A stretch of 64,000 nucleotides of DNA from a virus. The notes under the pieces are model-generated. The model was given only the letters and a program-made list of their open reading frames with translations. It was not told where the DNA came from and did not search any database. Location of the stretch: the IMG/VR virus record IMGVR_UViG_3300020578_000011; one strand, 5' to 3'. Both the position numbers and the translations under genes were made by a program. Shown piece by piece: positions 1,747 to 55,419 of the stretch. Position 1 is the stretch's first letter; every line of letters begins with the position of its first letter.

Positions 1747-1772
1747 AAGACCCATCCATAGGTCTTGTTTTA
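1747..1772. terminator. Putative bidirectional terminator between convergent genes
   Basis: AAGACC-N8-GGTCTT stem flanked by A-rich and T-rich tracts. Confidence 0.5.
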
Positions 1773-2291
1773 TTAACCAAGAAGAGCTTTAAGTTCTTCT
1801 GGCAAAAGTGTTACATTAACTTGAGTTTTAGGTTTCTTCTTTTGTCCTAATTCTTGTTGACGTGTTTCAATTGCCTCGTCTACAGATGCAATTGATTGAG
1901 AATCAGCGTTGCGCTCAACAAGGGCCTTACGAAGTAATTTTAGTTCTTTTAGTTGAGCATCACTTGCATTTTGTCGCGAACCTGGACTCTTAGCTTGATA
2001 CGCAGCGCCGGCGTTTAATGCTTTGTCTTTATTGTGCCAATTACTAACCAGTCCGCTTACATATTTACGAAGCTCTGACTTGTCAGACAGCTTTTTGCGA
2101 TTTGATTCTGTATCTGAAAAAACAACTTGACCTTTTTGAAACATAGAAGTTACAACTTCTAAAATCTGAGCTCGATATTCTTTAGTCATAACAGAATGAA
2201 TATCTGTTTGATTTGCGACAAACTCAATTCCAGCTTCTTGCAAAACTTGAATTGTTGCATTAAAAACGGCCTCACGTTGAGAAATAGTCAT
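1773..2291 (-). CDS. Unknown early protein, paralogue A (AT-rich copy)
   Basis: Shares YVxGxVxNW..K..LN.G..Y..K.PG.RQ..D.QLKELKLL.KAL.ERNA with 8486..8977 and 9732..10226; AAGGAG RBS. Confidence 0.9.
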   Translation of the reverse strand: MTISQREAVFNATIQVLQEAGIEFVANQTDIHSVMTKEYRAQILEVVTSMFQKGQVVFSDTESNRKKLSDKSELRKYVSGLVSNWHNKDKALNAGAAYQAKSPGSRQNASDAQLKELKLLRKALVERNADSQSIASVDEAIETRQQELGQKKKPKTQVNVTLLPEELKALLG

Positions 2292-2345
2292 AACCTGACT
2301 CCTTATAACAAGTATTGAAAAGAGAAACCACTCCTCTTTTCAAAT

Positions 2346-2750
2346 TCAATTAGAATCGGATATTGTTAGTGAATTGGCATTTGTTGTAAAGTCTGAAAAA
2401 GACATTGTACTTCTACCTAGCCAAGCTAAACATTCGAGCGTTTTTTCATATATTACATTTTTAGGGTTTTTATTTTTAAGCAAACCTGGACTTACGGCAA
2501 TTCCAATTTTTTCCACATTGGGTTCTGCTGTGTAGATTGCAGTCCAACAAATCCAACCATAATGATTCTCGTTTGGATCTAATAACTTAGCAACATAGGG
2601 TTTTGGCATCTGAGTTGCACAATTTGTTTTTTCGCAAAGCAATGCAAATTCCTTAAACCCGTCATTCAACTCATCTTGTAATCTGTCTTCTTCGGTTTCG
2701 TGTCCGCAGCTAGATATTAAAAACAAAGCAAACAATAAACTTTTTTTCAT
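2346..2750 (-). CDS. Predicted lipoprotein
   Basis: MKKSLLFALFLISS-C signal II/lipobox. Confidence 0.75.
   Translation of the reverse strand: MKKSLLFALFLISSCGHETEEDRLQDELNDGFKEFALLCEKTNCATQMPKPYVAKLLDPNENHYGWICWTAIYTAEPNVEKIGIAVSPGLLKNKNPKNVIYEKTLECLAWLGRSTMSFSDFTTNANSLTISDSN
2353..2360 (-). promoter_or_regulatory. TCCGATTC early promoter-like motif upstream of paralogue A
   Basis: Copy of the recurrent motif; followed by a TTGAAAAGAG/CTCTTTTCAA hairpin and the RBS. Confidence 0.7.
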
Positions 2751-2759
2751 ACAACACCC

Positions 2760-2924
2760 TCAATGAAGAATCTCCGGAATCGACTCTGTCATACTTTCAT
2801 TTGCAATGATTACATAATCAATGTATTCATCTATCATTGTTACAAGCATCTCATCTGGAGTTGTTACTATTTTTGTTTTATCTTTTACATTGTTTAAAAG
2901 AGCAATGAGTTGTTCAACAGTCAT
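2760..2924 (-). CDS. Small hypothetical protein (54 aa, MTVEQLIALL...)
   Basis: Hand-translated; AGGGG RBS and TCCGATTC motif 21 nt upstream. Confidence 0.7.
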   Translation of the reverse strand: MTVEQLIALLNNVKDKTKIVTTPDEMLVTMIDEYIDYVIIANESMTESIPEILH

Positions 2925-2945
2925 GTATTTCCCCTGATTTTAATA

Positions 2946-2953
2946 GAATCGGA
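2946..2953 (-). promoter_or_regulatory. TCCGATTC early promoter-like motif
   Basis: 21 nt upstream of the ATG at 2924. Confidence 0.7.
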
Positions 2954-2955
2954 AA

Positions 2956-3222
2956 TCAATGATAAACTCTGCCACAGGTAGCTTTTTTAACAATTAGTGG
3001 ATTATGACCTGCTTTTTCTAATTCTTTAGCCAGTTTTTTAACAGCCTCGCATTTGTTTTTTCCGTGCGCAGCAAAATCATCATTATCTATTTTTAACAGA
3101 CAAAGATGAGGATCCACTACAGTAACGCACAGCTCTGGTAGTTTTGGTTCTTGTTTTGGTTCTTGTTTTGGAATTGTACTGCATGAACTCAATACAAATG
3201 ATAACAATAGTATTTTTTTCAT
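2956..3222 (-). CDS. Predicted small lipoprotein
   Basis: MKKILLLSFVLSS-C lipobox; PKQE repeat; four further Cys. Confidence 0.75.
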   Translation of the reverse strand: MKKILLLSFVLSSCSTIPKQEPKQEPKLPELCVTVVDPHLCLLKIDNDDFAAHGKNKCEAVKKLAKELEKAGHNPLIVKKATCGRVYH

Positions 3223-3305
3223 TTGACACCTTCAAAATATCCACTTATAACTAATATTAAAAAACTAATCATAATAAATACAACTATATAATCAATGTAA
3301 ATCAT
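3219..3305 (-). CDS. 28-aa single-TM peptide
   Basis: Hand-translated MIYIDYIVVFIMISFLILVISGYFEGVK; ATGA overlap with the next gene. Confidence 0.5.
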   Translation of the reverse strand: MIYIDYIVVFIMISFLILVISGYFEGVK

Positions 3306-3605
3306 ATCTACGAAAATCCCCTGTTGATAATATTTTTAAACCATGGTTGGTGTTTTATGTTTTTGATATTTTTATTAAAAACATAAACAATATGACCATA
3401 AAATGAAATTTTATGACTGGGGCAATACCTAAATATAACGTAATATACCTTTTTTAGTTATTTTATATTAATTATACAAAAGTTCATCGAGTACGGGGGT
3501 GTGTTAATCATCCTTCAGTATTTGATTCAAGTCGTAAACATCCACATCCATTCCGTGCTTGATGATTTTTGTGTCATAATCGAAATGCTGCTTTTTATAA
3601 AAATA

Positions 3606-3740
3606 TTAGAATTCATCTTTAAGTTCTTTACTAATATCATTTAATGTTTTTTTAGGTTTTATAAAAAAGTTAATTATTAAATCAGTAATAGTTAAAAACA
3701 ACACGACTGAAATTGTAATTATTAGTAAATTTAATAACAT
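3606..3740 (-). CDS. 44-aa membrane peptide, similar to 9572..9670
   Basis: Hand-translated MLLNLLIITISVVLFLTITDLIINFFIKPKK... Confidence 0.55.
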   Translation of the reverse strand: MLLNLLIITISVVLFLTITDLIINFFIKPKKTLNDISKELKDEF

Positions 3741-3955
3741 ATTTCACTACTTTCAATAAACTTATTAAAAATCTCGGGATATCTGCCTACATAACCATTG
3801 TCTTCAAAGAAATAATAAAGAGCCTCACCAGGACGAAGACCGTCTTCAAAACTATCACGCCAGTGATAATCTTCAAAACTATTGGCATCAAGTCCCACTG
3901 CCTCAACGCAGAGACGATTAACTTCTTTCATCCAGATTTTGAAATTCATCTTCAT
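3731..3955 (-). CDS. Hypothetical protein
   Basis: GGGAG RBS; co-oriented in the early cluster. Confidence 0.7.
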   Translation of the reverse strand: MKMNFKIWMKEVNRLCVEAVGLDANSFEDYHWRDSFEDGLRPGEALYYFFEDNGYVGRYPEIFNKFIESSEICY

Positions 3956-4061
3956 TAGCTTCTCCCAAAAGATTTACTTAATCATCACTCTCGGCTTTAG
4001 CTTCACCAAAATCGCGTTGTTCTTGGGCTTGATTGGTAACCGCGCTTCCGGTATCGAGTTT

Positions 4062-4247
4062 TTAAGAATTTCTTTTTTGATTCACTTCTTGCAGCTGCGC
4101 AAGAAGACCATTGATTCTTTGAATGCTTTGCTTAATTTTCTCATGTCTTTCTTCAAGAGTGATTTCTCGTTTCTCGTTTTGAGGTTGCTTTTGCTGCACT
4201 TGTTGTTTGTTTCGAAAGCTGTTGATATCGATGACGTTGTCATTCAT
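4062..4247 (-). CDS. Small coiled-coil hypothetical protein
   Basis: AAGGAG RBS; MNDNVIDINSFR start. Confidence 0.7.
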   Translation of the reverse strand: MNDNVIDINSFRNKQQVQQKQPQNEKREITLEERHEKIKQSIQRINGLLAQLQEVNQKRNS

Positions 4248-4258
4248 AACGATCTCCT

Positions 4259-4594
4259 TTAGGGTTTGAGAGCATCGAACAAAACCTTAGCATACGGAGA
4301 CATTTCTTCTTTTTCATATGAAGCCTCATAGGCTTTGTAAAACTCTTTATCTAAAGCTTCTTTCTCGTCTTCATCTTCATCGTGATAAGTTCCGTCTTGA
4401 TGTTCAAAGATGCGGAAATCTCCTATTTCATAATCAAGCCATTCATTAAATCCTTGATTATATGCAACTTTATCTAATTCTTTTAAGGCATATGAGGTAG
4501 AGAAAGAATAAGTTGCCACCTTTACTTGCTCGGGATACACTTCATCAAGAAATTCGTCATACATCTTTTCAAGATCTTGCATATCTAGTTCCAT
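4259..4594 (-). CDS. Highly acidic hypothetical protein
   Basis: GAGGAGG RBS; D/E- and aromatic-rich; own TCCGATTC motif upstream. Confidence 0.8.
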   Translation of the reverse strand: MELDMQDLEKMYDEFLDEVYPEQVKVATYSFSTSYALKELDKVAYNQGFNEWLDYEIGDFRIFEHQDGTYHDEDEDEKEALDKEFYKAYEASYEKEEMSPYAKVLFDALKP

Positions 4595-4620
4595 GTTGTC
4601 CTCCTCTTTGTAATAAATAA

Positions 4621-4628
4621 GAATCGGA
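4621..4628 (-). promoter_or_regulatory. TCCGATTC early promoter-like motif
   Basis: Intergenic, 26 nt upstream of the ATG at 4594. Confidence 0.7.
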
Positions 4629-4638
4629 TTTAACCATT

Positions 4639-4884
4639 TTAGTCTTCAATAAAACCAATATATACATCTATTTGATATCCGTATGCCCAGCATTGATTAT
4701 CTAGAGTAAAGATAGCATCTTTTTTATCAACAATAGAAATAGTATCAACAGGTTGACGTTGACCATGTCTCAAACCTAACCCTATGTTTTTTTCAATAGA
4801 TACTATTTTTGCCTTTTCTGGCGGCAAGCTTCCCCAACAACCGCTCCACAGTACGTCATCTCCAATGCTTAAAAAAGCTGTCAT
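4639..4884 (-). CDS. Hypothetical protein
   Basis: GAGG RBS; ORF track. Confidence 0.7.
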   Translation of the reverse strand: MTAFLSIGDDVLWSGCWGSLPPEKAKIVSIEKNIGLGLRHGQRQPVDTISIVDKKDAIFTLDNQCWAYGYQIDVYIGFIED

Positions 4885-5006
4885 AACAACCTCTTATTTG
4901 TCATACGACAATCTTTACAAATCGACATCAATAATGTCACAATCCGAATCTGTAGTTTTTCTAAAGGTCGCATAGTCCATTTAAGAATCCCTTATTGCTG
5001 ATTTGT

Positions 5007-5174
5007 TTACTCAGTGCGAGTTCTTTTGGTCAAGGCATATTTCTTTTTCATCCTACATATTCCTGTCCAAGACATATCGTTCTGAATACATAACTTATAA
5101 AGAACATAGTGTAAGTCGTTTAAAGCTTTAAATTTTTTCTCTATCTTTAAATCGCATACTCGTATGTCTCTCAT
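5007..5174 (-). CDS. Hypothetical protein
   Basis: ORF track 5007..5216; probable ATG start at 5174. Confidence 0.45.
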   Translation of the reverse strand: MRDIRVCDLKIEKKFKALNDLHYVLYKLCIQNDMSWTGICRMKKKYALTKRTRTE

Positions 5175-5230
5175 GCAATTCTCGCTCTGTGTAGCAGTGT
5201 CAGCGGTCATGACCACTTAATATTAGTGAT

Positions 5231-5452
5231 TTACTTCTTAAGTAAAGAATATTTTATTTTAAGAAACACTAATAAGATACTAAACCTTGTTATGCTAATG
5301 AAAGAAGTCTCTTTTAGAGATGGGTTCCAAGCTAATAGATTGTCTATCTGCCGTTGTTGGTGGTGTGTTTTTTGCAAATCTACCCCAGGCATTTTTTCCT
5401 GCAAGTCCGCGATTCGAAGATTTCTTCTTCTTCTCAAATCGTCGTGCATCAT
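5231..5452 (-). CDS. Hypothetical protein
   Basis: Abuts the stop of the upstream gene. Confidence 0.55.
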   Translation of the reverse strand: MMHDDLRRRRNLRIADLQEKMPGVDLQKTHHQQRQIDNLLAWNPSLKETSFISITRFSILLVFLKIKYSLLKK

Positions 5453-5454
5453 TG

Positions 5455-5952
5455 CTATACAATCCTGTAAGTATCAAATTGACTAAAATATGGATAAACA
5501 AGCTCATATCCAAGTTGATTAACTATATCTTCGACAACTGAGACTAGCATATAATAACCATGGCATTGATAGCCCGTTTTTTGATCTATAAACGCTATCT
5601 CAATGGTATGTGGAAATACTTCATTCATTGCACTTGTTCCACTTGACCAAGGGCCTTTAATGTTGCAGGTCGAACCGTCCGTCATTGTTAGATTAAACGT
5701 GTGGCCATAGAAACCACTTGAATCATTAAGTCGTTTGTAATAAAACTGAACAAAGCCAATTTCATTCTTTCCCCAGTATAGATCACCAACATGCTTGCCG
5801 TTGTCGCGATCATGGTCTTCTATCTTTTGAAATAAGATATCACTCGGCTCTCTTCCTCTAATATAAAGACGAAGTTTGTTAGTTGAGACCGTATCGATCC
5901 AGAATTCATAGCCATTAGAATATAATCTGTTTGGTTTTGCGACTTGTTCCAT
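5455..5952 (-). CDS. Hypothetical protein
   Basis: GAGGTGA RBS; 165 aa. Confidence 0.8.
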   Translation of the reverse strand: MEQVAKPNRLYSNGYEFWIDTVSTNKLRLYIRGREPSDILFQKIEDHDRDNGKHVGDLYWGKNEIGFVQFYYKRLNDSSGFYGHTFNLTMTDGSTCNIKGPWSSGTSAMNEVFPHTIEIAFIDQKTGYQCHGYYMLVSVVEDIVNQLGYELVYPYFSQFDTYRIV

Positions 5953-6136
5953 GGCTCACCTCGTGAATGGATTTTAGGATTTCATCGAAATAATGATTCT
6001 TATTTGTTACTTTTGCTATTCGCAAAATACCTAATAGCATTTTAAATCTCTGTTTACTTCTTAAACCTTCAACGGTTACAACTAGTTTGTCAAATTCATC
6101 GTACTTATTTTCAGAAACAGATTTGTTAGATTTCAT
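5915..6136 (-). CDS. Hypothetical protein
   Basis: Abuts the upstream stop. Confidence 0.6.
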   Translation of the reverse strand: MKSNKSVSENKYDEFDKLVVTVEGLRSKQRFKMLLGILRIAKVTNKNHYFDEILKSIHEVSHGTSRKTKQIIF

Positions 6137-6574
6137 TTATAAAACTTTTTCTTCAATAGTTTCAAACTCAATTAATTGATTTAGATAATTGAGAATATCT
6201 TGCTCATCCACACCTGCTATTATTGCGAACTTTATACAATTAGAAATATCAGACACATGTCCGCATTTCATTTCAGTAATCAAAAAAAACCTATCTGTTC
6301 CCATGTGTGCATCTTGAGCACAACTTGAAATTGCCCCAGAGGCAAAATAAAACGCATGATTGAGAATATTTGCATCTGCAATTTTACGTGCTAAATTACT
6401 TGCTATCTCACATTCTTTTTTTGAAGAAAGACCATTGATATAATTATCTATAACTTTAATAACATTAGTTAAATCATCATCAGGGCATATTTTACTTGCC
6501 AAAATGGCAGAAAATAAATTAAGTCTATTGATTTGTTTATTAGTAAGCTTGCGGCCACAATAGTAAATATTCAT
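6137..6574 (-). CDS. Hypothetical protein
   Basis: GGGAG RBS; 145 aa. Confidence 0.75.
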   Translation of the reverse strand: MNIYYCGRKLTNKQINRLNLFSAILASKICPDDDLTNVIKVIDNYINGLSSKKECEIASNLARKIADANILNHAFYFASGAISSCAQDAHMGTDRFFLITEMKCGHVSDISNCIKFAIIAGVDEQDILNYLNQLIEFETIEEKVL

Positions 6575-6595
6575 AATAAATCTCCCTAAGATTTA

Positions 6596-7000
6596 CTATA
6601 GATTCGAATTTAATTGCTTTTCAACAGCGCAACGAAACAAGTAATTCATAGCTAACATTTTTATTTGCTCTCGTTCTACTACTCTCGCCCCGTCGAGCGA
6701 CCAGCTAAATGTAGAATAGGGTTCTGGATAGAATCGGATCTGACAATAGCCCGCACTTCTATCTGAGATAAGTTTACCATTGGTTTGTTTAAGAAGACGT
6801 TTTAACTTAAATGAATGCTTATTCAAATCATGTCGAAGTTTGTTGTGCGCTTCGAATTCACGTTTTAATTTGTTAATTATTTCAATAGGTTTTCTATTAT
6901 CAACTGCATACATAAGTTTATAACGCAATGAGCTACGTTTGCGAGCCCATTCGTTTCTAGCATTAACTATGAAGCAGATCTCTTCATATACAGAGTTCAT
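6596..7000 (-). CDS. Basic hypothetical protein
   Basis: GAGG RBS; TCCGAATC motif at 7028-7035 upstream. Confidence 0.75.
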   Translation of the reverse strand: MNSVYEEICFIVNARNEWARKRSSLRYKLMYAVDNRKPIEIINKLKREFEAHNKLRHDLNKHSFKLKRLLKQTNGKLISDRSAGYCQIRFYPEPYSTFSWSLDGARVVEREQIKMLAMNYLFRCAVEKQLNSNL

Positions 7001-7221
7001 AAAACCTCTGACCTACACGTTGAAATAGATTCGGATAATACTTTATTTTATAAAATCCTCAACATCTACAAAGGATAGGTTTACTTTACTGTTTTTTATA
7101 ACTACTAATCTCATCAACACCCAAGTTAGGTGTATTCTAGTTGTAGTTCTATTGTTCCACTCTATTGGTCTAAAGTAACTCATTTAATCATGTATTCGAA
7201 GTTGGGATTGATCAACGTGGT

Positions 7222-7443
7222 TCATAAATCACATACCTCTTCTAAAGTCATCTCTTCTGTCGTGACTAATTCTAGTTCGTCTATTGCATAGAAGTGAGAA
7301 TAGCTTTTTGCATGGGCATCTGCTGCCTGGGCGTCAGTTGCATTTATCAGTCTTTGCATATCTTTTTCCGCCTGAGCGCGAACGGTATAGACCTTATCCA
7401 CGGCGATTTCGACGTCATTAAATACTATGATATAGACTTTCAT
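7222..7443 (-). CDS. Hypothetical protein
   Basis: Likely start MKVYII at 7443 after AAGGA. Confidence 0.7.
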   Translation of the reverse strand: MKVYIIVFNDVEIAVDKVYTVRAQAEKDMQRLINATDAQAADAHAKSYSHFYAIDELELVTTEEMTLEEVCDL

Positions 7444-7519
7444 CTGTCTTCCTTGAGACGACCTGAGTCCGCGCCGACACTGTTCACACAATGAAGAAAA
7501 AAACTATGAAGCATGTTGT

Positions 7520-7723
7520 TCATTCAGAGCTCCAAAAGAACTTGGAGATGCTCTGCAGCATCCCCATCTTCAAGGCTTCGGCTTTCTCTATCGCTACCAA
7601 CAAAGCTCTGCTGGCTGCTTTGAGGGAGTCTATGTCCTTGTAATCAGAGGAACTTAGTAAGTTTTCAGCTTCCCATATCAAGGTTCTAATAGTTTCTATT
7701 TCGTCTGAATTGTTAGGTTTCAC
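7520..7723 (-). CDS. Hypothetical protein
   Basis: AAGGAG RBS, GTG start. Confidence 0.65.
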   Translation of the reverse strand: MKPNNSDEIETIRTLIWEAENLLSSSDYKDIDSLKAASRALLVAIEKAEALKMGMLQSISKFFWSSE

Positions 7724-7866
7724 ACCTTATCTCCTTTAAACTCACCACAAGCGCATCCTCAAAAAAAAACGCGTTTGCAACTCAAAATATGATTACGAAT
7801 AGACGGTACTCTCCAAAAAACAGTTACACACCAAACCAAAGAACCACAATTGAAATCAACGGAGTA

Positions 7867-8112
7867 TTAAACGGGGTTGTCTTCTAGCAAGAACTCAATC
7901 AATCCATTGAGCTGTCTCTCATTAAGACGGCCAATGATTGAAGTCCGATAGTCATCTGCATCATAAGAGCAACCGTAAGTGTATTCGATCACACCCAGTT
8001 CCAAAAGCATCTCTAAGCCCTTCTCGCCAGGGAATCTAGCACTAAACATTCTATCAACCATACGAGCAACAGGAGTAAGCTCACGATCACCAGAGACCAT
8101 AAGTACTGTCAT
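7867..8112 (-). CDS. Hypothetical protein
   Basis: GGAGGT RBS before the ATG at 8112. Confidence 0.7.
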   Translation of the reverse strand: MTVLMVSGDRELTPVARMVDRMFSARFPGEKGLEMLLELGVIEYTYGCSYDADDYRTSIIGRLNERQLNGLIEFLLEDNPV

Positions 8113-8124
8113 ACCCACCTCCAA

Positions 8125-8310
8125 TCATCTACGTAGTTTAATAATTGGATGACCTTCGTCTGTTACGTCAGATGTAGCGTCTGACAACTCAAGATCTACA
8201 CAGCCAGCACCAAAGTATTCATCTTGCTCTAGATCAAGAATGGTTACATGATTGTTTAACTGATTTTCACTTAAAAGACTAAGGGCTTCTAGCAGTTCTT
8301 TATAGGTCAT
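8125..8310 (-). CDS. Small acidic hypothetical protein (MTYKELLEAL...)
   Basis: GGAGGT RBS; TCCGATTC at 8338-8345. Confidence 0.75.
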   Translation of the reverse strand: MTYKELLEALSLLSENQLNNHVTILDLEQDEYFGAGCVDLELSDATSDVTDEGHPIIKLRR

Positions 8311-8485
8311 AGTGACACCTCCATCTATGGATGTAGAGAATCGGATGGAACGCTTCGCTGTCCCAGATTGCCCCAGTGAAAATGGGATAAAATGAGTTAA
8401 AAGTGGGTGGGTGGTGGCCGCGCACTCTCTCACTCAACTTTCCACTTAAATTTTATTAGTGCACTTCCATGTGCACCTATCTCAC

Positions 8486-8977
8486 TCAGAGCAAGTCTCT
8501 TAGGTGCTCTGGGATTTTACTAAGATCCACTTCGATTTTGCTTTGTGGCTTGATCTCGCTGAGACGCTGCGCAATTGCTTCATCGACCTTGGCAACTGCT
8601 TCAGGCTGGGCATTGCGCTCGATGAGAGCCTTGCGCAGTAGCTTTAGCTCTTTCAGCTGTGGATCACTTGAACCCTGGCGAACACCCGGGTTTTTGGGTG
8701 CATACTTTGTTCCACCATTGAGCTCGGTCGACTTGCGGAACCAGTTGTTCACCATACCTACTACGTAGGTACGGACCTTAGATGGTGAGTCGTACTTGAT
8801 TCGAGCACCTGGACTAAAATCAGTCCCATGCTCGAGGATCGACTGGGTCACTAGATCGACCACCTGCTTAGTCTGATCCTTGGTGATGTACTCCAAGACT
8901 GGAGTACCGGGTTTGAACGACTCACCGAGAACTTCTTGAGTAGCTGCAACAACTGACGCTGACTGTGACATAGTCAT
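8486..8977 (-). CDS. Unknown early protein, paralogue B
   Basis: Aligns end-to-end with 9732..10226; GGAGGT RBS; CCCGATCC motif at 9022-9029. Confidence 0.9.
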   Translation of the reverse strand: MTMSQSASVVAATQEVLGESFKPGTPVLEYITKDQTKQVVDLVTQSILEHGTDFSPGARIKYDSPSKVRTYVVGMVNNWFRKSTELNGGTKYAPKNPGVRQGSSDPQLKELKLLRKALIERNAQPEAVAKVDEAIAQRLSEIKPQSKIEVDLSKIPEHLRDLL

Positions 8978-9075
8978 AAAACACCTCCAATAGTTGAGCT
9001 CAGGCCCAACATATATATAAAGGATCGGGAGAGACTGGGACCGTCCCAGCGTTCGCAGTGCTTCGGGTGCCGCTA

Positions 9076-9471
9076 CTACCGTTGGCCCGCGAACAATATA
9101 TTATAGAGTCGGTTGACGGCGTAGCGGTGTCGGAGCTGTTGGCTCCGACTGGGGGAGCTAGCGAGGACTAAGTCCTCGCTTTCCCCTGGTGTTCTCACTA
9201 TGCTCTCGGCTCGCCAGCGGACTGGAGAGCCGTCGTGTGGCTTGTGCCAGTTGGCCGTGTATTCCACGGTCTCGAACTCGTCTTCGAGTTCGACCAAGTT
9301 CGAGAGCATTTGGAGATGCTCTGCGAGTTCTGGATCGTGGTTGCCAACTAGTTCGTCGCTATCTTGGTACCTGAAGGCGCCGCCATCGATGGCGTAGTAC
9401 TCGGTGTACTCGCTGTCTGTGATGTCAGTGATGAATGCATTTACCGCGCCTTCGAGTCTTACATTGTACAT
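9076..9471 (-). CDS. Acidic hypothetical protein
   Basis: GAGGTGA RBS; 131 aa. Confidence 0.75.
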   Translation of the reverse strand: MYNVRLEGAVNAFITDITDSEYTEYYAIDGGAFRYQDSDELVGNHDPELAEHLQMLSNLVELEDEFETVEYTANWHKPHDGSPVRWRAESIVRTPGESEDLVLASSPSRSQQLRHRYAVNRLYNILFAGQR

Positions 9472-9606
9472 AAGTCACCTCATTGTTAATATATAAGCTA
9501 TATTTAATTATATAGCTTATTATTAACAATATATTATAGAGTCGATTGACGGCGTAGCAGTGTCGGAGCATTCAGCGCCGACTGATTCTCTCTAGAACGA
9601 AGTCCT
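9092..9606. repeat. Imperfect ~85-bp direct repeat (9092-9176 and 9525-9606) carrying a hairpin and promoter-like motif
   Basis: AACAATATATTATAGAGTCGRTTGACGGCGTAGCRGTGTCGGAGC...CCGACTG...AAGTCCT in both copies. Confidence 0.9.
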
Positions 9607-9670
9607 TTATTACATCGGAGATAGTTAGTAAGATATATCCGAACACGAAGATAATAAGTAAACTAGTCAT
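9572..9670 (-). CDS. 32-aa membrane peptide
   Basis: GGAGGA RBS; MTSLLIIFVFGYILLTISDVIKDFVLERISRR. Confidence 0.7.
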   Translation of the reverse strand: MTSLLIIFVFGYILLTISDVIKDFVLERISRR

Positions 9671-9693
9671 GATCGTATCCTCCTAGTTTAGGG

Positions 9694-9720
9694 AAAGGTT
9701 GGGCTCAGAAGAGCCCAACC
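9694..9720 (-). terminator. Hairpin downstream of paralogue C (terminator or processing site)
   Basis: GGTTGGGCTC-N4-GAGCCCAACC perfect 10-bp stem followed by only TTT on the minus strand. Confidence 0.6.
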
Positions 9721-9731
9721 GGAACGGAACC

Positions 9732-10226
9732 TCAGACGAGGTCCCGGAGGTGATCTGGGATCAGATCCAGATTCACTTCGACCTTCTTGGCTGCGGGTTG
9801 GATCTCGGAGATTCGCTGGTCGATCGCTTCCTGCACCTTGGCCAGAGCATCTGGTGCTGCGTTCCGCTCGGTCAAGGCCTTCATCAGGAGCTTGAGCTCC
9901 TTGAGCTGGGGGTCGGTCGAACCTTGGCGAGATCCTGGGTTCTTGATCTCGTACTTGGTTCCACCGTTCAACTCCTTGCCTTTGCGGAACCAGTTGTTGA
10001 CCATACCAACCACGTAGCTTCTCAGCTTCTTGGGATCGGCGAACTTCTCACGAGCCTGAGCGGAGAGATCGGTCTCGAACTCTTGGATCGACTGAGTCAC
10101 AAGGTCAACAACCGAGGCAGTCTCGTCCTTCGAGATGTACTCGAGGATCGGAGCACCTGGACGGAAGGATTCACCGAGAACTTGCTTGGTATAGAACACT
10201 ACTGATTCGGATTGTGACATAACCAT
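9732..10226 (-). CDS. Unknown early protein, paralogue C (GC-rich copy, first gene of the leftward unit)
   Basis: AGGAGGT RBS; homologous to 1773..2291 and 8486..8977. Confidence 0.9.
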   Translation of the reverse strand: MVMSQSESVVFYTKQVLGESFRPGAPILEYISKDETASVVDLVTQSIQEFETDLSAQAREKFADPKKLRSYVVGMVNNWFRKGKELNGGTKYEIKNPGSRQGSTDPQLKELKLLMKALTERNAAPDALAKVQEAIDQRISEIQPAAKKVEVNLDLIPDHLRDLV

Positions 10227-10257
10227 ATAACACCTCCTGGTTGAACAAACAGATAGA

Positions 10258-10431
10258 GTATCGGATCAAACGCCGTACACTATCGATAACAGAATCGTAA
10301 GACAAAGATAGAATAGTATCGGAATCTCCACATTCACCTCCAGTTTCGGGTGGGTGCTTTCCATAATACTTTATAGAATCGGATACCCGGTAGCCTTTCC
10401 TTTTTAGGGGACCTCTTATTATAGTATCGGT
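10258..10431 (-). promoter_or_regulatory. Four tandem (T/A)CCGATWC promoter-like motifs
   Basis: Copies at 10258-10265, 10316-10323, 10376-10383 and 10424-10431, all facing paralogue C. Confidence 0.75.
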
Positions 10432-11060
10432 ACCGCGGCGCAAATAATCCCTAGCTGGGGCATTGCAAATACAAGGGCCCGGGCCCTCAATACAGAAACA
10501 GGCCCGGTAGCTTGTAGAAAAAAGTCAGGTACCAGTACTTGATTTGCACACAATAGTATAGTGTGATTTATAGAGCGTGCATTTTAAAAACACATTGTAT
10601 ATTCATACAATTAATCAGTTTTGCTTATTCTATACTTCCTGTAACCTACAACTGCCACCACATAGGGTGCATATAGTCGCCACAACTGCCACCATATAGG
10701 GTGCACATTCTCCTATTCCCTTGTCAAAGATCCACTCCTATTATACCCGCCCAGGGCCTGCGCGGACGCCCACTACATCGTTGACATCATTGAAATAAGT
10801 GAGAAAGTTATAGTTAAATTACGTCGTTTACTTCGCTGATATAAAGCGCGATATCGCGCTAGGATCTTCAGCGAATAGACTCGACGAGGATAGGTGGTGC
10901 TTTAGTTGTAGGTTAGGCGCGGCATCATAGGTGCAGTGGATTACAGGCGCTGGCATAAGGCATGATTGATAAAAAATATGGGTTGATTTAAAATTAGTGA
11001 AAGTTAAGTGTGTGCACTTAAAAAAGCATAGTGTTTTCATGGGGTTCTAAAAAAACTTAA
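10432..11060. other. Non-coding palindrome/repeat-rich junction (candidate genome end or packaging site)
   Basis: Palindromes 10474-10487 and 10845-10860; 24-bp direct repeat at 10648/10682; 12-bp inverted repeat at 10642/10904. Confidence 0.45.
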
Positions 11061-11064
11061 AAAA

Positions 11065-11856
11065 TCAAGAAAGAAACAATCTTCGTTCAGCTTCTCTACG
11101 ACGAGTTAAACCAGCCATAACTTGACCACGGGACTTGTTGTATTTTAAAAACTCTTCTGCGGCAAGAACAAAGTTACGTTGATTAACGAGCTTAAGAAGA
11201 GTCGATTGCTTTAGATTACCAGCACCGACGTTGTAGGTAAACGAAACTAGAGCGGCAAATTGATTGTCATTGACTTCTACTTTTAGAAGCTTGCTTACTT
11301 GATCGCAAAAGCTTTGAAGATGATGGACGAGTGCTTGCTCAGCTTGCTCCTGTGTCCATACTGTCTTTGGACCAATTGGTGAGTGTTTTCCGTCTACCAG
11401 CGGAGAGAATTGATCAAGACCAGTTGCACCGTAGCCAATTGTCCAAGGATCACCTGGAAGAGATTTCCAACCTTCTTTTCTGGCGTTTTGTGTTTTTAAC
11501 AACTCTTTACCTAGAGGAGAGGCAGGATCGGCATATGCCTTTAACTTACAACCTTCGAAAGATTTTATTAGGTCAACACCATCTTTGTTTATCTTTTTCA
11601 TATTTTCTTCTCCAAATTTTTGTTCTATAGCAAAATCTAAAATTTTTTGCTTAGCTGCTTGTTTGTAGATTTCTGCAACTTCATATTCTGATCTTGCACG
11701 AAGAGCTCCGGTGGCTTCCCAACAACTCATCCAACCAGTTCCATCTTGCCTTTCTGTTAATTTAGCAAGAGGACAAATTTTACATGGATTATTTCTGAGA
11801 TCTTCACAATCACCAGTCGAAGCTATATGCTCTAATATCTTAGAGACGCGATTCAT
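11065..11856 (-). CDS. GH24 lysozyme (endolysin) with a Cys-rich N-terminal extension; probable internal start at 11601
   Basis: LIKSFEG..KAY.D...WTIGYG...NQFAALVSFTYNVG...GLTRRREAERRLF. Confidence 0.9.
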   Translation of the reverse strand: MNRVSKILEHIASTGDCEDLRNNPCKICPLAKLTERQDGTGWMSCWEATGALRARSEYEVAEIYKQAAKQKILDFAIEQKFGEENMKKINKDGVDLIKSFEGCKLKAYADPASPLGKELLKTQNARKEGWKSLPGDPWTIGYGATGLDQFSPLVDGKHSPIGPKTVWTQEQAEQALVHHLQSFCDQVSKLLKVEVNDNQFAALVSFTYNVGAGNLKQSTLLKLVNQRNFVLAAEEFLKYNKSRGQVMAGLTRRREAERRLFLS

Positions 11857-11903
11857 CGCAATACTCCATGTATAATAGGTTATACCTAGGAGAGGATTTT
11901 ATC

Positions 11904-15961: not shown

Positions 15962-18133
15962 ATGGCAATAAGCGTCAGCTTTAACGGAGCGACAATAAAA
16001 AAGCCAGGTAGTTATTCAAAAACAGAAGTGGACGTGGGTGGGAATTTGCCACTTGGCCCAGCTGGATTAGTTGTCATTGTTGGAGAGGCAGATGCAGGCG
16101 CTCCAGTTACGGCTGAGATTGATGCTTCTAGAAATGTATACACAGCAGATCAATTAAGTGAAATTAGAGCTAAATATCGCTCAGGTCCTATTGTTGATGC
16201 TGCTAATTTTTTATTTTCTCCATCTATCGATGGCGCTATTCCCAATGGAGCACAGGCTGTTTGGGTTCTTAAAACAAATGCTTCTGTAAAAGCATCTTTG
16301 GCTCTTGCTTCTTCTTATGGAACTCTTAGAGCTAGAGAATGGGGCGTTGGTGGAAATCAAGTAAGTGCAAAAATTGTCTCTTCTTCAGAGGTTCCTCCTG
16401 CTAAACTTGGAACACCTCTTGCTTTTGGGGCTTCTTTAAATGCAGCTTCTTTTAGTGTAAGAGTAAATGGCGGAGCTGCTTCAGTTGTTACTCTTAGTTC
16501 AACTTCGGATGATCATTCAGATTTAACTTCTTTAGTTTCTGAATTAGAAACTAAACTACCTGCAGGAGTTTCCGCTTTTGTTTCCTCTGGTTCTTTAAAA
16601 ATAGAACTAGATACACAATCAAATCAACATCTTCTTGGTTTTGGTCGATCATTAGAATTAGTTGATTCTACTATTGGTGATTTAGCAAAACTAGGCATGA
16701 CGGCTGGATTAGCTTCTAGCTCTGCAGAGCCTTCTGTTACAGTATCTTTTTCACAAAAAAGAGATCTTTTAGTAGAAGAAGATGCAATTGGTGGCAATGT
16801 TGTCTTAACAATAGGTCATGATGGTTCTGGGGGCGTTTCTTCTGCTTCTGTTTCAATAAATGAAACTTCTATTGTCTTAAATACTTCAGCTGGTTCTGTT
16901 AGTATTCAGAAATCAGAATATTTAACATTAGGAAAAATCGCTGAAGCAATCGACTTTCAACCTGGATGGTCTGCATCTGTGTCAAATGTGCTTTATGCAA
17001 ATCTATCTCCTTCTTGTCTAGATCATGTTTCGTCAGCTGGAGCTTTGTCATCAGTTGCAGCAAAACCTGCTCGTATTAAAAAAGATTCTTTTGAAATGTC
17101 TAAACTGGTATCGGAGTCTCTGCTTGTTCAATTTGTAAATCAATCAAAAGTAGGATTGCCTGCAGCAATGTCTGAAATGATGTTGTCAAATGGAGCTAAG
17201 GGCGCAACTACTTCTTTAAGTTTTGTTGAAGCTCTTGCCAAGGCTGAGAAGTTTCATTGCAATTTTGTAATTCCTCTTTTTTCTAGAGACGCATCTGCAG
17301 ATGTTGCAGATTCATTAACAGATGCTGGTTCTACATATACAATAGATGGTATTCATCAAGCTGTTAAAACACATATTAGTTTAATGAAAACTACTCTTAA
17401 AAAGAGTGAGCGACAAGGATTCTTATCTCTTAAGGCAAGTTTTGATACTTGTAAAGAAAAAGCAGCTTCAGTTTCAGATGCACGTATGCAACTTGTTGTT
17501 CAAGATGTTCGCCAAGCAGATGCTCAAGGAAATATAAAATGGTTTCAACCATGGGCATTAGCTTGTCTTCTTGCTGGGTCTAGAAGTGGAGCGCCAATAG
17601 GTCTTCCTATGACATTTAAATTTATGAACTGTGCTGGAATTCGTCATACAGCTCAGTCCATGACAACAGCTGAACAAGATATTGCTATAGATTTTGATCC
17701 AGATGTTGAATTTGCAGAAGCCATTGATGCGGGTATTACTTTCTTAGAATCGCCAAGAACAGGTGGCTTTAGAGTAGTTGTTGACAACACCACATATGGG
17801 CTTGATAGTAACTGGGTTTACAATCGTGCAAATGTTATATATTCTGGCGATATCGTTTCTTATAATTTCAGAAACACGATGGAACTTCGTTATGTTGGTG
17901 TTAAGAATAATATTAGAGCAGCAGAAGTAAAATCTACAGCTGAATCTGTTCTTAATACATTCTTAGCCCAGGGAATAACCGTATCTACATCAGATGCTCC
18001 GCAAGGATTTAAGGATCTAAGCGTGAGAATGGAAGGAAATGTTATTTATATTAGCGTGACGGTTAAACTTGTTGAAGGTATTGATTTCATCTTGTCTGAG
18101 ATCACTCTACAAAGAGCAACTCAATCGGCTTAA
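15962..18133 (+). CDS. Tail sheath protein
   Basis: MAISVSFNG..IKKPGSYS N-terminus; C-terminal AGIT.LE...RVVVDNTTY...ISVTVKLVEGIDFI. Confidence 0.9.
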   Translation: MAISVSFNGATIKKPGSYSKTEVDVGGNLPLGPAGLVVIVGEADAGAPVTAEIDASRNVYTADQLSEIRAKYRSGPIVDAANFLFSPSIDGAIPNGAQAVWVLKTNASVKASLALASSYGTLRAREWGVGGNQVSAKIVSSSEVPPAKLGTPLAFGASLNAASFSVRVNGGAASVVTLSSTSDDHSDLTSLVSELETKLPAGVSAFVSSGSLKIELDTQSNQHLLGFGRSLELVDSTIGDLAKLGMTAGLASSSAEPSVTVSFSQKRDLLVEEDAIGGNVVLTIGHDGSGGVSSASVSINETSIVLNTSAGSVSIQKSEYLTLGKIAEAIDFQPGWSASVSNVLYANLSPSCLDHVSSAGALSSVAAKPARIKKDSFEMSKLVSESLLVQFVNQSKVGLPAAMSEMMLSNGAKGATTSLSFVEALAKAEKFHCNFVIPLFSRDASADVADSLTDAGSTYTIDGIHQAVKTHISLMKTTLKKSERQGFLSLKASFDTCKEKAASVSDARMQLVVQDVRQADAQGNIKWFQPWALACLLAGSRSGAPIGLPMTFKFMNCAGIRHTAQSMTTAEQDIAIDFDPDVEFAEAIDAGITFLESPRTGGFRVVVDNTTYGLDSNWVYNRANVIYSGDIVSYNFRNTMELRYVGVKNNIRAAEVKSTAESVLNTFLAQGITVSTSDAPQGFKDLSVRMEGNVIYISVTVKLVEGIDFILSEITLQRATQSA

Positions 18134-54015: not shown

Positions 54016-55419
54016 ATGAGAATAGAAATCCTTAATCATGTAATAAGGATAGACGATCCAGATAAAGAAATAGAATCGGATTTAATTAAAAAATTAACCT
54101 ATACAGATAAGTCAAAACAATATCAAATAAAAAAAATGCAAAAAAATCCATTTTCAATAAAATCTAAACTTTATCAAAAGTTAATAAATGAAGTTAATGG
54201 ATCTTTAATTGAAAAAGTTGATAATACTATTTTTGTCCCATCTGGTTTTGCTAAATATGTTATTGACTTAGTATCTAAAATTAAATCTGTTGAAATTATT
54301 GATTCAAGATACGAAACAGGTTCAAACATTGCCCTACCGTGGGCAAGTGGTTCTTATTTACTTGAATTGAGAGATTATCAAAAAGAAGCCATCGACATAG
54401 CAGTATCAAATTGGCGAGGCATAATAAACTTTGCAACAGGTCTTGGAAAAACTAAAACAGCAATATCTTTAATACGAACACTAAAAAAAAAGACACTTAT
54501 AATATGTCCATCAAACTCTGTTGCAAATCAATTTAAAGACGAATTAATTCTTGCATTTGGTCAGAATAGAATTGGTTTTATAGGCGATAGTAAATTTAAA
54601 CCTTCAGATATAACCGTATGTATAGCTGCATCTGCTAATAATCACATAGATAAAATAAAGAAATTTGATTTAGGTTTAGTTATATTTGACGAATGTCATC
54701 ATTGTCCTGCCAATACCTTTTATTCTATATCACAGGGATTGTCGCATGTTGGACGTATGTACGGATTAACTGCCACTTCTTTTAGATCTGATGGTAAAGA
54801 TGTCATGATAACAGCAGATTGTGGAGACATATTGGTTAAAAGAGATGCAGCATGGGGAATTGCAAATAACTGGTTAGCTCAACCATATTTTATAGTTAGA
54901 AAAGTAAATACAACAGGTTTTGATTTTAAAGATGACAAATTAAAATCATATAAAAATCATGTTTTAAATTCAAAAGAAATGACATCAAGAATAGAATCAG
55001 ATGCTAAAAACTTTATACAAGCAAACAAATCAGTACTTATATTAGTAGATGAGGTTGAGCATGGAGAATCTTTATCAAAAGCTCTAAAAATTCCTTTTGC
55101 TCAAGGTGAAGATAAACAATCAAATGAATATGTCGATCAATTAAACAAAGGTCTTATTCCTGGTCTTGTTGGAACAGATGGAAAAATATCAGAAGGAACA
55201 GATACTAGAAATGTAGATATTCTTATATTAGCTAATTTTAGTGCATCTAAAGGAGCCGTTTTACAAGCCGTAGGTAGAGGTCTGAGAAAAACAGATACAA
55301 AAAATCATGTTATAATTTTAGATTATATCCCAGCTGGATCTACTATGTTAAGTAGACATGCTAATCAACGTATTTCTTTTTATCAAGAAATTACGTCTAA
55401 TATAAAATTGGTAGAATAA
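54016..55419 (+). CDS. Superfamily 2 DNA helicase (UvsW-like)
   Basis: LRDYQ; ATGLGKT; DECHH; GLTAT; QAVGRGLR. Confidence 0.9.
   Translation: MRIEILNHVIRIDDPDKEIESDLIKKLTYTDKSKQYQIKKMQKNPFSIKSKLYQKLINEVNGSLIEKVDNTIFVPSGFAKYVIDLVSKIKSVEIIDSRYETGSNIALPWASGSYLLELRDYQKEAIDIAVSNWRGIINFATGLGKTKTAISLIRTLKKKTLIICPSNSVANQFKDELILAFGQNRIGFIGDSKFKPSDITVCIAASANNHIDKIKKFDLGLVIFDECHHCPANTFYSISQGLSHVGRMYGLTATSFRSDGKDVMITADCGDILVKRDAAWGIANNWLAQPYFIVRKVNTTGFDFKDDKLKSYKNHVLNSKEMTSRIESDAKNFIQANKSVLILVDEVEHGESLSKALKIPFAQGEDKQSNEYVDQLNKGLIPGLVGTDGKISEGTDTRNVDILILANFSASKGAVLQAVGRGLRKTDTKNHVIILDYIPAGSTMLSRHANQRISFYQEITSNIKLVE

Follow-up and report, generated by a model that had tools for sequence, protein, structure and literature searches.

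A conserved TCCGAWWC signal before early-type genes in an uncultured phage from a lake and its possible recognition by a phage-encoded FliA/WhiG-type mini-sigma factor

A conserved signal before early-type genes

In an uncultured lake phage, a real and conserved signal, TCCGAWWC, precedes the small early-type genes. In the window, i.e., the entire stretch of 64,000 nt analyzed here (IMG/VR record IMGVR_UViG_3300020578_000011), there are ten exact copies of TCCGATWC where 1.95 would be expected; every one is on the minus strand, and none of 100 shuffles reached this number. The phage also encodes a short protein related to sigma factors (mini-sigma), which on balance is probably the factor that, on the host core RNA polymerase, fires TCCGAWWC-(t)A promoters, a class that consists of a -10 element only.

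Eight of the ten exact copies lie within 2353-10383. Their co-orientation with the early genes, claimed in a first-pass annotation, is borne out, although the label "early" for the respective block (Table 1) is assumed from gene content. The motif divides the block into about nine to ten units; no Pfam family was found for five of its proteins. The most over-represented 9-mer on the minus strand of positions 1700-11900 is TCCGATTCT (6 seen vs. 0.04 expected). The octamer originally proposed as the motif is real, but the true motif is longer (A-TCCGAWWC-TAt in the window), with about 11 nt conserved in total. All sites contain the core CCGA(T/A)(T/A), preceded by T as first base and followed by an invariant C as eighth base. 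Among four genomes, 25 of 57 TCCGAWWC copies are located 12-75 nt 5' of a co-oriented start (p = 5e-19), a zone that makes up only 4.5% of the sequence.

Measured distances agree with the previous observation that five copies (2946, 4621, 7028, 8338, and 10258) stand 21-31 nt before an ATG, with a Shine-Dalgarno sequence (SD) in between, and four copies are indeed stacked in front of the first gene (10258-10431). One of the stacked sites (10316) doubles as the P-I-L codons of a conserved hydrophobic mini-ORF of 20-21 aa. Outside the stack, the sites at 6731 and 2353 fall within coding sequence; the former is possibly an internal promoter, and a hairpin (2315-2343) lies between the latter and the ATG at 2291. 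The site at 54073, which is antisense in the first codons of a divergent helicase gene, precedes a 64-aa ORF that heads the Toprim primase/DnaB operon (53960 down to 50881). The copy at 17108 is probably due to chance. Five variant sites (7028, 9022, 9106, 9539, and 10424) had also been listed; their letters are present as given, but two of them (9106 and 9539) are doubtful members because C stands where true sites have W, and CCGAC variants are never enriched 5' of genes in the four genomes. Both belong to direct-repeat copies that are 88% identical, the first of which contains the box CGACACCGCTAC.

Table 1. Motif sites and associated features, in window coordinates
Feature	Position	Strand	Remarks
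Early-type block	1773..10226	-	~24 small ORFs, function unknown; based on listed ORFs and on genes called in identical metagenome contigs
First stacked site, ACCGATAC, then TATAAT	10424..10431	-	
Second stacked site, TCCGATTC-TAT	10376..10383	-	
Third stacked site, TCCGATAC-TAT	10316..10323	-	
Fourth stacked site, TCCGATAC	10258..10265	-	31 nt 5' of ATG of 164-aa gene (9732-10226)
60-nt repeat, copy 2	9525..9584	-	3' end ATCGACTC-TATAAT (site 9539)
60-nt repeat, copy 1	9092..9151	-	3' end ACCGACTC-TATAAT (site 9106)
Degenerate site, CCCGATCC	9022..9029	-	44 nt 5' of ATG of 163-aa paralogue (8486-8977)
Site TCCGATTC	8338..8345	-	27 nt 5' of ATG at 8310, with SD
Site TCCGAATC-TAT	7028..7035	-	27 nt 5' of ATG at 7000
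Site TCCGATTC-TAT	6731..6738	-	Within gene 6596-7000; 156 nt 5' of ATG at 6574
Site TCCGATTC	4621..4628	-	26 nt 5' of ATG at 4594, with SD
Site TCCGATTC-TAT	2946..2953	-	21 nt 5' of ATG at 2924
Site TCCGATTC-TAA	2353..2360	-	Within gene 2346-2750, at its 3' end; 61 nt 5' of ATG at 2291
TCCGATAC	17108..17115	-	Antisense within tail sheath gene; no TA after, no downstream gene
Site A-TCCGATTC-TAT	54073..54080	-	112 nt 5' of 64-aa ORF
Mini-sigma gene	88,728-89,456 (window-equivalent)		

A -10 element without a -35 element

The short distance to the ATG, with the SD in between, supports the view that TCCGAWWC behaves as a promoter-type -10 element. Among 43 non-redundant sites, TAAA at sigma28 spacing occurs only twice (1.1 expected), which confirms the reported absence of a good -35, and no upstream columns are conserved. 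TGGAG, TGGGA, and TGAAG, previously noticed near the -35 position of four copies, are not a general feature (0-1 of the 43 sites). The motif lacks dyad symmetry, and there is no hairpin signal around the sites. The early-type block shows no enrichment of sigma70-type promoters, and no sigma70 -10 element consistently adjoins the motif.

Promoters of sigma28 (FliA/WhiG) have the structure TAAA-N15-GCCGATAA, with a -10 element composed of C-13 and G-12, followed by ATAA. Binding of sigma28 to the -10 element, whose hallmark is C-13 and G-12, is strong, whereas binding to the -35 element is weak (bioRxiv 10.1101/2020.01.02.893370). The phage motif retains exactly the CCGA of this hallmark. Its description as sigma28-like in the first-pass annotation is appropriate for the CCGA(T/A) core, which is common to sigma28 -10 boxes, but not for the flanks, which are fixed differently (T instead of G before CC, and C instead of A at the eighth base). 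In the four genomes, the canonical sequences are not enriched 5' of genes (GCCGATAA, 1 of 13; GCCGATAT, 0 of 18; vs. TCCGAWWC, 25 of 57).

A second class of signals, GTATAAT, is enriched 5' of genes in this phage and three relatives. GTATAAT(A/T) without a -35 element is located 17-45 nt 5' of the portal, capsid, and sheath genes, and TGGTATAAT-type sites occur also 5' of the relatives' own sigma genes. The earlier assignment of such signals to structural and replication genes holds for the structural and most of the replication genes, but the primase/DnaB operon has the TCCGATWC site at 54073.

Conservation in related phages

Relatives with 55-80% identical tail sheaths and GC contents of 41-54% retain TCCGAWWC-(t)A at a median distance of 30 nt 5' of the start codon; the middle bases of the core TCCGA..C vary among them. 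In an alignment of five lineages 5' of one orthologous gene, the motif is the sole invariant block besides the SD and the ATG. The first stacked site (ACCGATACT) is invariant in three relatives with a 79% identical sheath, where it lies within a strongly conserved non-coding block; at the second, the motif is retained in relatives but has moved by about 6 nt. Relative L011 has a perfect TCCGATAC-TAT at what appears to be the ortholog of the degenerate site at 9022, and the TCCGAATC variant of site 7028 predominates in relatives G002 and G003. In the 67-nt divergent spacer between the sigma and ligase genes of relatives, the ligase side has no candidate promoter element other than the motif.

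A phage-encoded mini-sigma factor

Homologs of the mini-sigma are encoded by this phage and by each of the four large relatives in which the protein was looked for, including G001, G002, and G003. The proteins (130-240 aa in these phages; 105-170 aa for mini-sigmas apart from that of this phage, which has 242 aa including an unrelated tail) comprise sigma region 2 and one helix (the first of region 3) but no region 4, and do not have the full FliA/WhiG architecture (regions 2, 3, and 4); a structure model also yields a region 2 fold without region 4. The best NCBIfam match of the relatives' mini-sigmas is FliA_WhiG (TIGR02479; E = 4e-10 and 2e-9), which covers only model positions 1-89 of 224; the scores of 38-40 bits fall short of the family cut-off (189.6). 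A mini-sigma profile retrieves WhiG (7e-12), E. coli FliA (2.6e-10), and RpoS (1e-4) from the PDB, and 125 clusters, including full-length cellular sigma factors, at E values up to 1e-10. Of the ten full-length cellular proteins closest to the mini-sigma, eight are FliA/WhiG. By sequence, the mini-sigma is classified as a FliA/WhiG-type sigma region 2 protein. It has G where Q437 of sigma70 reads -12T.

Pfam searches with three mini-sigmas (E up to 0.1) returned only Sigma70_r2 and, for one protein, DUF6610, and no gp55 family. A multisubunit phage RNA polymerase was not found in the relatives. A search of three relatives for the T7-type polymerase (PF00940), which lacked a working positive control, gave no match; T7-type promoters are conserved over about 20 nt, reaching the start site.

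We infer from these data that the mini-sigma reads TCCGAWWC; the start sites and timing that follow from this reading are predictions. The protein would bind the core RNA polymerase of the host and recognize TCCGAWWC-(t)A as a -10 element, with no -35 element used. By sigma28 numbering, the motif would span -15 to -6, with its invariant A at -11 and a frequent T at -7, the positions of the bases flipped out by sigma70-family factors. Transcription should start about 7-8 nt past the octamer, producing leaders of 14-30 nt with the SD as their only content. The TCCGAWWC class would drive about ten early-type units, with the fourfold stack at their head, and probably also the primase/helicase operon, whereas the structural and most of the replication genes would be served by the separate GTATAAT class. 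A reader from the sigma28 family, as postulated in the first-pass annotation, is implicated, but it is probably the FliA/WhiG-like protein of the phage rather than host FliA.

Several observations count against the mini-sigma as the reader of the motif. The protein of this phage itself gives only a weak sigma match (TIGR02937 at 1.4e-5) and is joined to the FliA-like family only via its relatives (1e-11; profile, 1.7e-35). Eleven residues of E. coli sigma28 are reported to contact the -10 element (H26, R34, R58, Q63, T69, Q73, R74, R84, R94, R95, and R98; bioRxiv 10.1101/2020.01.02.893370). In the aligned mini-sigmas, few of these appear to be kept (R94 is unchanged, R98 is replaced by K and R34 mostly by K/H, and T69 is mostly unchanged); R58, Q63, Q73, R84, and R95 are not kept, and R74 is retained by many members of the family, whereas this phage has T. 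The sigmas of G002 and G003 are only 35% identical, yet the motif is the same (no covariation), and 17 kb of a distant contig that bears a sigma gene contain no clear TCCGAWWC site. Moreover, the mini-sigma gene of this phage is located inside the late head operon; for its product to reach the early-type genes, packaging may be needed.

Alternative explanations

If GTATAAT were read by the mini-sigma, as TATAAATA is read by gp55 in phage T4, TCCGAWWC would be left to a host polymerase re-targeted by another phage factor or to an unrecognized phage sigma. The gp55 architecture of the mini-sigma fits such an arrangement as well as it fits the recognition of TCCGAWWC, and the enrichment of the -10-only GTATAAT(A/T) before portal, capsid, and sheath genes, the late-operon location of the mini-sigma gene, and a 138-aa head-module protein with a weak sigma region 4-like HTH are all in its favor. 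Nevertheless, we regard it as unlikely: the mini-sigma has no gp55 family match and is FliA/WhiG-like, including the G at the Q437 position of sigma70; TGGTATAAT-type sites before the relatives' sigma genes are expected of host sigma70 extended -10 promoters; and no alternative candidate reader of a CCGA -10 element was found. It is quite unlikely that the motif is read by the host sigma28 (FliA) holoenzyme, as originally suggested, such that infection begins only in motile cells and the mini-sigma acts as a later helper or competitor. The core CCGA(T/A) is common to the motif and GCCGATAA, sigma28 depends mainly on the -10 element, the phage sigma looks descended from a FliA/WhiG gene, and the position of its gene in a late operon may mean that some host factor is needed first. 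However, the lack of enrichment of GCCGATAA and GCCGATAT, the deviating T and C flanks, and the absence of a TAAA -35 element leave host FliA unsupported, and a lineage with its own region-4-less sigma28-type factor and -35-less promoters does not need it. No relatives of the sheath or the sigma were found in 185,579 species genomes, and neither the motile host stage nor the Bdellovibrio-like host considered previously finds support there.

An RNA processing or translational-control site in the leaders, or the operator of a phage repressor, would explain the strand specificity of the motif, its position directly 5' of SD sequences, and the copies within coding sequence (6731, 2353, and 10316) without invoking a promoter. 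This is improbable, given that relatives retain the four stacked copies before the first gene and have back-to-back copies in short divergent spacers without room for another promoter, and that there is neither dyad symmetry, nor a hairpin signal, nor a consistently neighboring sigma70 -10 element to repress. The probability that the motif is a product of chance or of repeated DNA is negligible; sites 9106 and 9539 do belong to the 60-nt repeat, but the shuffles, the mutually unrelated flanks of the non-repeat copies, and the conservation across lineages of widely different GC content rule out a chance origin for the core set of sites.

Comparison with known systems

T4 and SPO1 are known to encode sigma factors that have promoters of their own. 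With sigma28 promoters, the TCCGAWWC class shares the CCGA(T/A) core with C-13/G-12, the reliance on the -10 element, and the sigma family, but, apart from its flanks and the lack of TAAA, it differs in its reader, which is probably a truncated protein without regions 3.2 and 4, and in its regulon, which comprises phage early-type instead of flagellar genes. The late promoters of T4 (TATAAATA) are served by gp55 with gp33 and the gp45 clamp. Like the mini-sigma, gp55 is a region-2-only phage sigma that uses the host core polymerase and -10-only promoters, a likeness of design without shared descent: the mini-sigma has no family link to gp55, its putative motif is different and contains GC, TCCGAWWC precedes early-type genes whereas the T4 class is late, and no co-activator is known here. 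In SPO1, alternative sigmas (gp28 and gp33/34) on the host core set temporal promoter classes, and a host-takeover block contains many small genes and many promoters, but the sigmas use two-part (-35 and -10) promoters of middle and late genes; the early genes depend on host sigmaA. Extended -10 promoters of sigma70 (TGnTATAAT) also manage without a -35 element, thanks to contacts just 5' of the -10 hexamer, where the TCC of the phage motif is situated, but the sequence differs, and presumably also the sigma; TGGTATAAT-like sites represent the other promoter class of this phage group. A sigma28-derived region-2-only factor combined with a -35-less CCGA promoter class is not described in the literature searched.

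A packaged sigma factor?

It is conceivable, albeit doubtful, that the mini-sigma is packaged in the particle and injected with the DNA, sending the host core polymerase straight to the stacked TCCGAWWC promoters. This would require neither a host sigma factor nor earlier synthesis of phage proteins. The sigma domain of this phage lies within a split head-module gene: the 371-aa ORF and the tail portion of the sigma ORF together correspond to a single 502-aa protein of a relative, and the two ORFs overlap by 11 nt. In more distant phages, one protein of 495-535 aa, located in the same gene order, has a head-module-like N-terminal part and a sigma domain at its C-terminal end. Only if the sigma is packaged would there be a likeness to the virion RNA polymerases of N4 (vRNAP) and phiKZ, namely phage-supplied promoter recognition and early genes independent of host sigma; those, however, are complete polymerases, whereas the hypothetical cargo here is a sigma domain of about 115 residues that acts on the host core.

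Implications

If the mini-sigma indeed reads TCCGAWWC, it would show the minimal size of a working sigma factor for a GC-containing -10 element, and factor and promoter would form a compact orthogonal pair. For uncultured myoviruses of this widespread freshwater group, TCCGAWWC located 20-45 nt 5' of a start codon provides a rule for the annotation of transcription units. Should the sigma be packaged, it would represent a new way of starting a viral program.

A strand- and position-locked motif

The motif TCCGAWWC is a real and conserved −10-type element that is locked to strand and position. Its exact form (TCCGATWC) occurs ten times in the window, always on the minus strand, where 1.95 copies are expected and no shuffle reaches ten. 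The most over-represented 9-mer on the minus strand of the early block is TCCGATTCT (six seen, 0.04 expected); TCCGATTCTA is a word of the same CCGAT-type motif. Alignment of the sites on the octamer extends the consensus to A-TCCGAWWC-TAt, with no conservation upstream. None of the plus-strand genes across 92 kb has a co-oriented copy upstream, and the two plus-strand copies lie outside promoter positions, one antisense within the early block and the other intragenic and lacking a downstream TA. The early block shows no enrichment of consensus sigma70 promoters (35 found, 28 expected).

All five variant sites listed in the first-pass annotation are present in the sequence, and its claims that five copies lie 21–31 nt ahead of a Shine–Dalgarno (SD) sequence and ATG and that four copies are stacked were both borne out. 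In its site list, 9106 and 9539 are rated doubtful: each terminates a copy of a 60-nt direct repeat and carries C where real sites have A or T, and CCGAC variants show no enrichment ahead of genes in any case. An exact search for this repeat in IMG/VR gave no match. The copies at 17108, 10204, and 4943 (plus strand) appear to reflect chance or coding sequence. A possible operator or leader hairpin is the near-perfect AT-rich palindrome (~45 nt) that lies between the ATG at 9471 and the end of the repeat at 9539.

Coordinates of features in the phage and its relatives (positions refer to the window unless a contig or relative is named)
Feature	Position	Strand	Remarks
Tail-fibre gene	1-1746		long collagen-like repeats
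Early block	1773-10226	minus	~24 small ORFs
Motif stack	10258-10431	minus	four copies
Motif, full consensus	54073		112 nt ahead of the first ORF of the primase/DnaB operon
Motif, antisense in early block	4943	plus	
Motif, intragenic	70317	plus	
12-mer box CGACACYGCTAC	9121-9132, 9554-9565, 5191-5202	minus	also in relatives G001-G003
Palindrome	9481-9530		
Mini-ORF	10278-10343	minus	includes site 10316
Membrane-like ORF	start near 9671		~33 codons
Paralogous genes	8486-8977, 9732-10226	minus	163 and 164 aa
Conserved block	~10360-10460		
Non-coding stretch	10440-10760	minus	upstream of the promoter stack
27-nt direct repeat	10648-10674, 10682-10708	minus	in the non-coding stretch
GTATAAT site	near 10745	minus	in the non-coding stretch
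GTATAAT(A/T) sites without −35	upstream of 11904, 20079, 38536, 55704	plus	also in G001-G003
Structural module (sheath, tube, baseplate)		plus	long
138-aa head-module protein	L059:20612-21025		window-equivalent 81,721-82,137
Head-module gene with sigma domain	L064:15903-17733		window-equivalent 87,623-89,456
Mini-sigma of this phage	L064:17008-17733 (window-equivalent 88,728-89,456)		
Mini-sigma allele in G002	42750-43247		
Mini-sigma allele in G003	79603-80037		
L059 and L064 are contigs carrying the sequence of this phage beyond the window.

A search of IMG/VR with the tail sheath yielded 36 related contigs (49–80% identity), in many of which the motif recurs upstream of the sheath module with its strand unchanged. 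Three large records of relatives (G001, G002, and G003) were taken in full and their genes called. The enriched upstream words are TCCGA(A/T)(C/T)C-TA in G001 and TCCGAATC-AAT and TCCGAAAC-TAT in G002 and G003; relatives with 79% sheath identity use TCCGATAC-T. The motif scan over genome and relatives that had been proposed as a check places 25 of the 57 TCCGAWWC copies in the four genomes at 12–75 nt upstream of a co-oriented start, a zone that covers 4.5% of the sequence (p = 5e-19), and octamers with other first and last bases show no such enrichment in these genomes. The motif typically lies 30 nt ahead of the start codon (median; interquartile range 27–38). Upstream of one orthologous gene from five lineages, T.TCCGA..C.A is the sole invariant block besides SD and ATG. 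Close relatives keep the fourfold stack but with one copy displaced by ~6 nt, a sign that selection acts on the motif and not on its surroundings.

A −10 element without a −35 element

Because the gap of 21–31 nt between motif and ATG contains the SD sequence, the start of any transcript that uses this SD can be no more than about 12 nt away from the motif, so that the motif, if it is a promoter element, is a −10 element. In a 67-nt divergent spacer of the relatives, the motif stands back to back with the TATATAAT of the neighboring gene, which leaves no space for another promoter. None of the upstream columns is conserved among 43 non-redundant sites, and TAAA at sigma28 spacing occurs in two of them (1.1 expected). 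As −35 candidates, TAAA, TTGACA, TGGAG, TGGGA, GGAAC, and GAAAC were all rejected, as none is enriched at a spacing of 12–20 nt.

In the E. coli sigma28 complex, the corresponding bases are numbered C-13, G-12, and A-11 (bioRxiv 10.1101/2020.01.02.893370). By this numbering, the motif covers −15 to −6, with an invariant A-11 and a T at −7 in 26 of the 43 sites. An A/T pair at −11/−7 is the usual −10 signature of the sigma70 family.

Several other explanations of the sites were rejected. An overlapping sigma70 −10 element just downstream is not indicated, as the hexamers there lack T at −7 and read AAT.. in relatives. Terminator hairpins upstream of the sites, considered as a sign of terminator–promoter junctions, are no different from controls (p = 0.32). 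Although CGACTC-TATA resembles part of a T7 promoter, only ~11 nt are conserved and the CGACTC copies are part of the repeat. Any complementarity of CGAUUC to a conserved 16S segment would be too short to be meaningful.

A phage-encoded sigma factor as candidate reader of the motif

A Sigma70_r2 search of the relatives brought up, as a weak match, a G003 protein that belongs to a family with members of 105–170 aa. These mini-sigmas, which comprise sigma region 2 plus one helix and lack region 4, have homologs in G001, G002, G003, and this phage, whose own protein is a weak sigma match by itself. The best match of the relatives' proteins is FliA_WhiG, at model positions 1–89 only (E = 4e-10 and 2e-9). 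In the PDB, a profile built from 13 members picks out Streptomyces WhiG (7e-12) and then E. coli FliA (2.6e-10), followed by RpoS (1e-4), and eight of the best ten full-length proteins in a library of 1.84 billion are FliA/WhiG by NCBIfam. The AlphaFold model is confident at residues 1–119, and its Foldseek matches are sigma region 2 domains. Of the FliA residues that contact the −10 element, only some are retained: R94, T69, R98 (as K), and R34 (as K or H). A multisubunit phage RNA polymerase (including beta-prime) was not found in the relatives, and a search for a T7-type polymerase gene, run without a control, had no match among them.

The motif would be read by this phage-encoded, sigma28-type mini-sigma, a mechanism that is the best supported and has a slightly better than even chance of being correct. 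The most economical pairing is that of a −35-less promoter class having a sigma28-like core with a sigma28-like factor without region 4, which is present in every lineage examined for it. Covariation lends no support, since TCCGA..C is common to all lineages, even where the sigmas are 35% identical. A clear motif was not found in 17 kb of a distant sigma-bearing contig, and IMG/VR scans for distant sigmas gave nothing useful.

The first-pass annotation had tentatively assigned the motif to the FliA of the host. The phage motif shares CCGA(T/A) with the sigma28 box GCCGATAA, but departs from it in two fixed bases, T at the first and C at the eighth position, and upstream regions show no excess of canonical sigma28 boxes, which makes a host FliA an improbable reader. 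The TATAAT-type signal noticed before structural genes was recovered as a second −10-only class, GTATAAT(A/T), which precedes portal, capsid, sheath, and other genes in all four genomes, 17–45 nt ahead of structural and some replication genes. In the GC-richer relatives, the enrichment of this class is strong (in G001, 12 of 22 copies lie upstream of genes). A T4-like scheme, in which the mini-sigma reads this class instead, would unite a −10-only site with a region-2-only factor; however, TGGTATAAT-type sites also stand ahead of the relatives' own sigma genes and fit extended −10 promoters of the host sigma70, and region 2.4 of the mini-sigma is FliA-like rather than sigma70-like, so that we consider this scheme unlikely. 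An RNA or operator role of the motif seems very unlikely.

The mini-sigma alleles of G002 and G003 are 35% identical, with an almost identical upstream region in otherwise near-identical genomes, which suggests that the gene was replaced while its locus stayed fixed. The 138-aa head-module protein, which has a syntenic homolog in G002, gives a sub-threshold match to the helix-turn-helix of sigma region 4 / region 3 (E = 6e-4) and could be a partner of the mini-sigma or merely a small DNA-binding protein.

Other elements around the early block

The 12-mer box is present in three copies in the window (0.03 expected) and in five to eight copies per relative, in both orientations. Copies often come after a GC-rich hairpin and 7–30 nt upstream of a TCCGA site; as its spacing to TCCGA varies, the box is not a fixed promoter part. 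The mini-ORF has a strong SD and encodes a hydrophobic peptide of 20–21 aa (xPILFYL...) that is kept in three relatives; it would be the true first gene of the early block. The paralogs, which are 70% identical and belong to no Pfam family, each have their own motif copy and lie in a block of ~49% GC within a phage of 32–34% GC. This value matches that of the GC-richer relatives, which makes a recent acquisition possible. The non-coding stretch could have a regulatory role or represent a small RNA, and the block at this stretch is conserved in close relatives.

Genome and host

The window derives from an uncultured myovirus of ~34% GC (32–34%). Many metagenome contigs from JGI and Logan carry genes identical to its own; one 101-kb metagenome record spans the window from position 307 onward, and a walk along identical contigs lengthened the sequence to 92 kb. 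The window also encodes a lysozyme, a primase/DnaB operon on the minus strand, and replication genes on the plus strand. Strong GGAGG SD sequences are used throughout the phage; neither Rfam families nor tRNA genes were found in the window. The word GGTCCTCAAGGT, from the collagen-like tail-fibre gene, dominates the over-represented words of the window.

By tail sheath, the closest cultured match is Myxococcus phage Mx1 (32% identity), and no cultured phage carries the mini-sigma. Host prediction, another check proposed earlier, found no relatives of sheath or sigma in 185,579 GTDB species genomes, and nothing ties the phage to the motile developmental stage or the Bdellovibrio-like host that had been envisaged.

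Timing and possible packaging of the mini-sigma

The sigma gene of the relatives is a solitary gene flanked by those for DNA ligase and ribonucleotide reductase, behind a TATAAT-type site, which would place the genes preceded by TCCGAWWC in a delayed-early or middle class. This phage has its sigma domain within the head module, inserted in a head-module gene. The single 502-aa protein of a relative corresponds to the 371-aa ORF of this phage plus the C-terminal tail of its 242-aa sigma ORF; the two ORFs share 11 nt, read in different frames, and six consecutive A lie ~20 nt ahead of the start of this overlap. More distant phages with the same gene order encode one protein of 495–535 aa that matches the head-module protein in its N-terminal part and ends in the sigma domain. 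Single-ORF fusions (P0050 and P0068) occur in other phages. The head-module context and these fusions suggest that the mini-sigma may travel in the virus particle.
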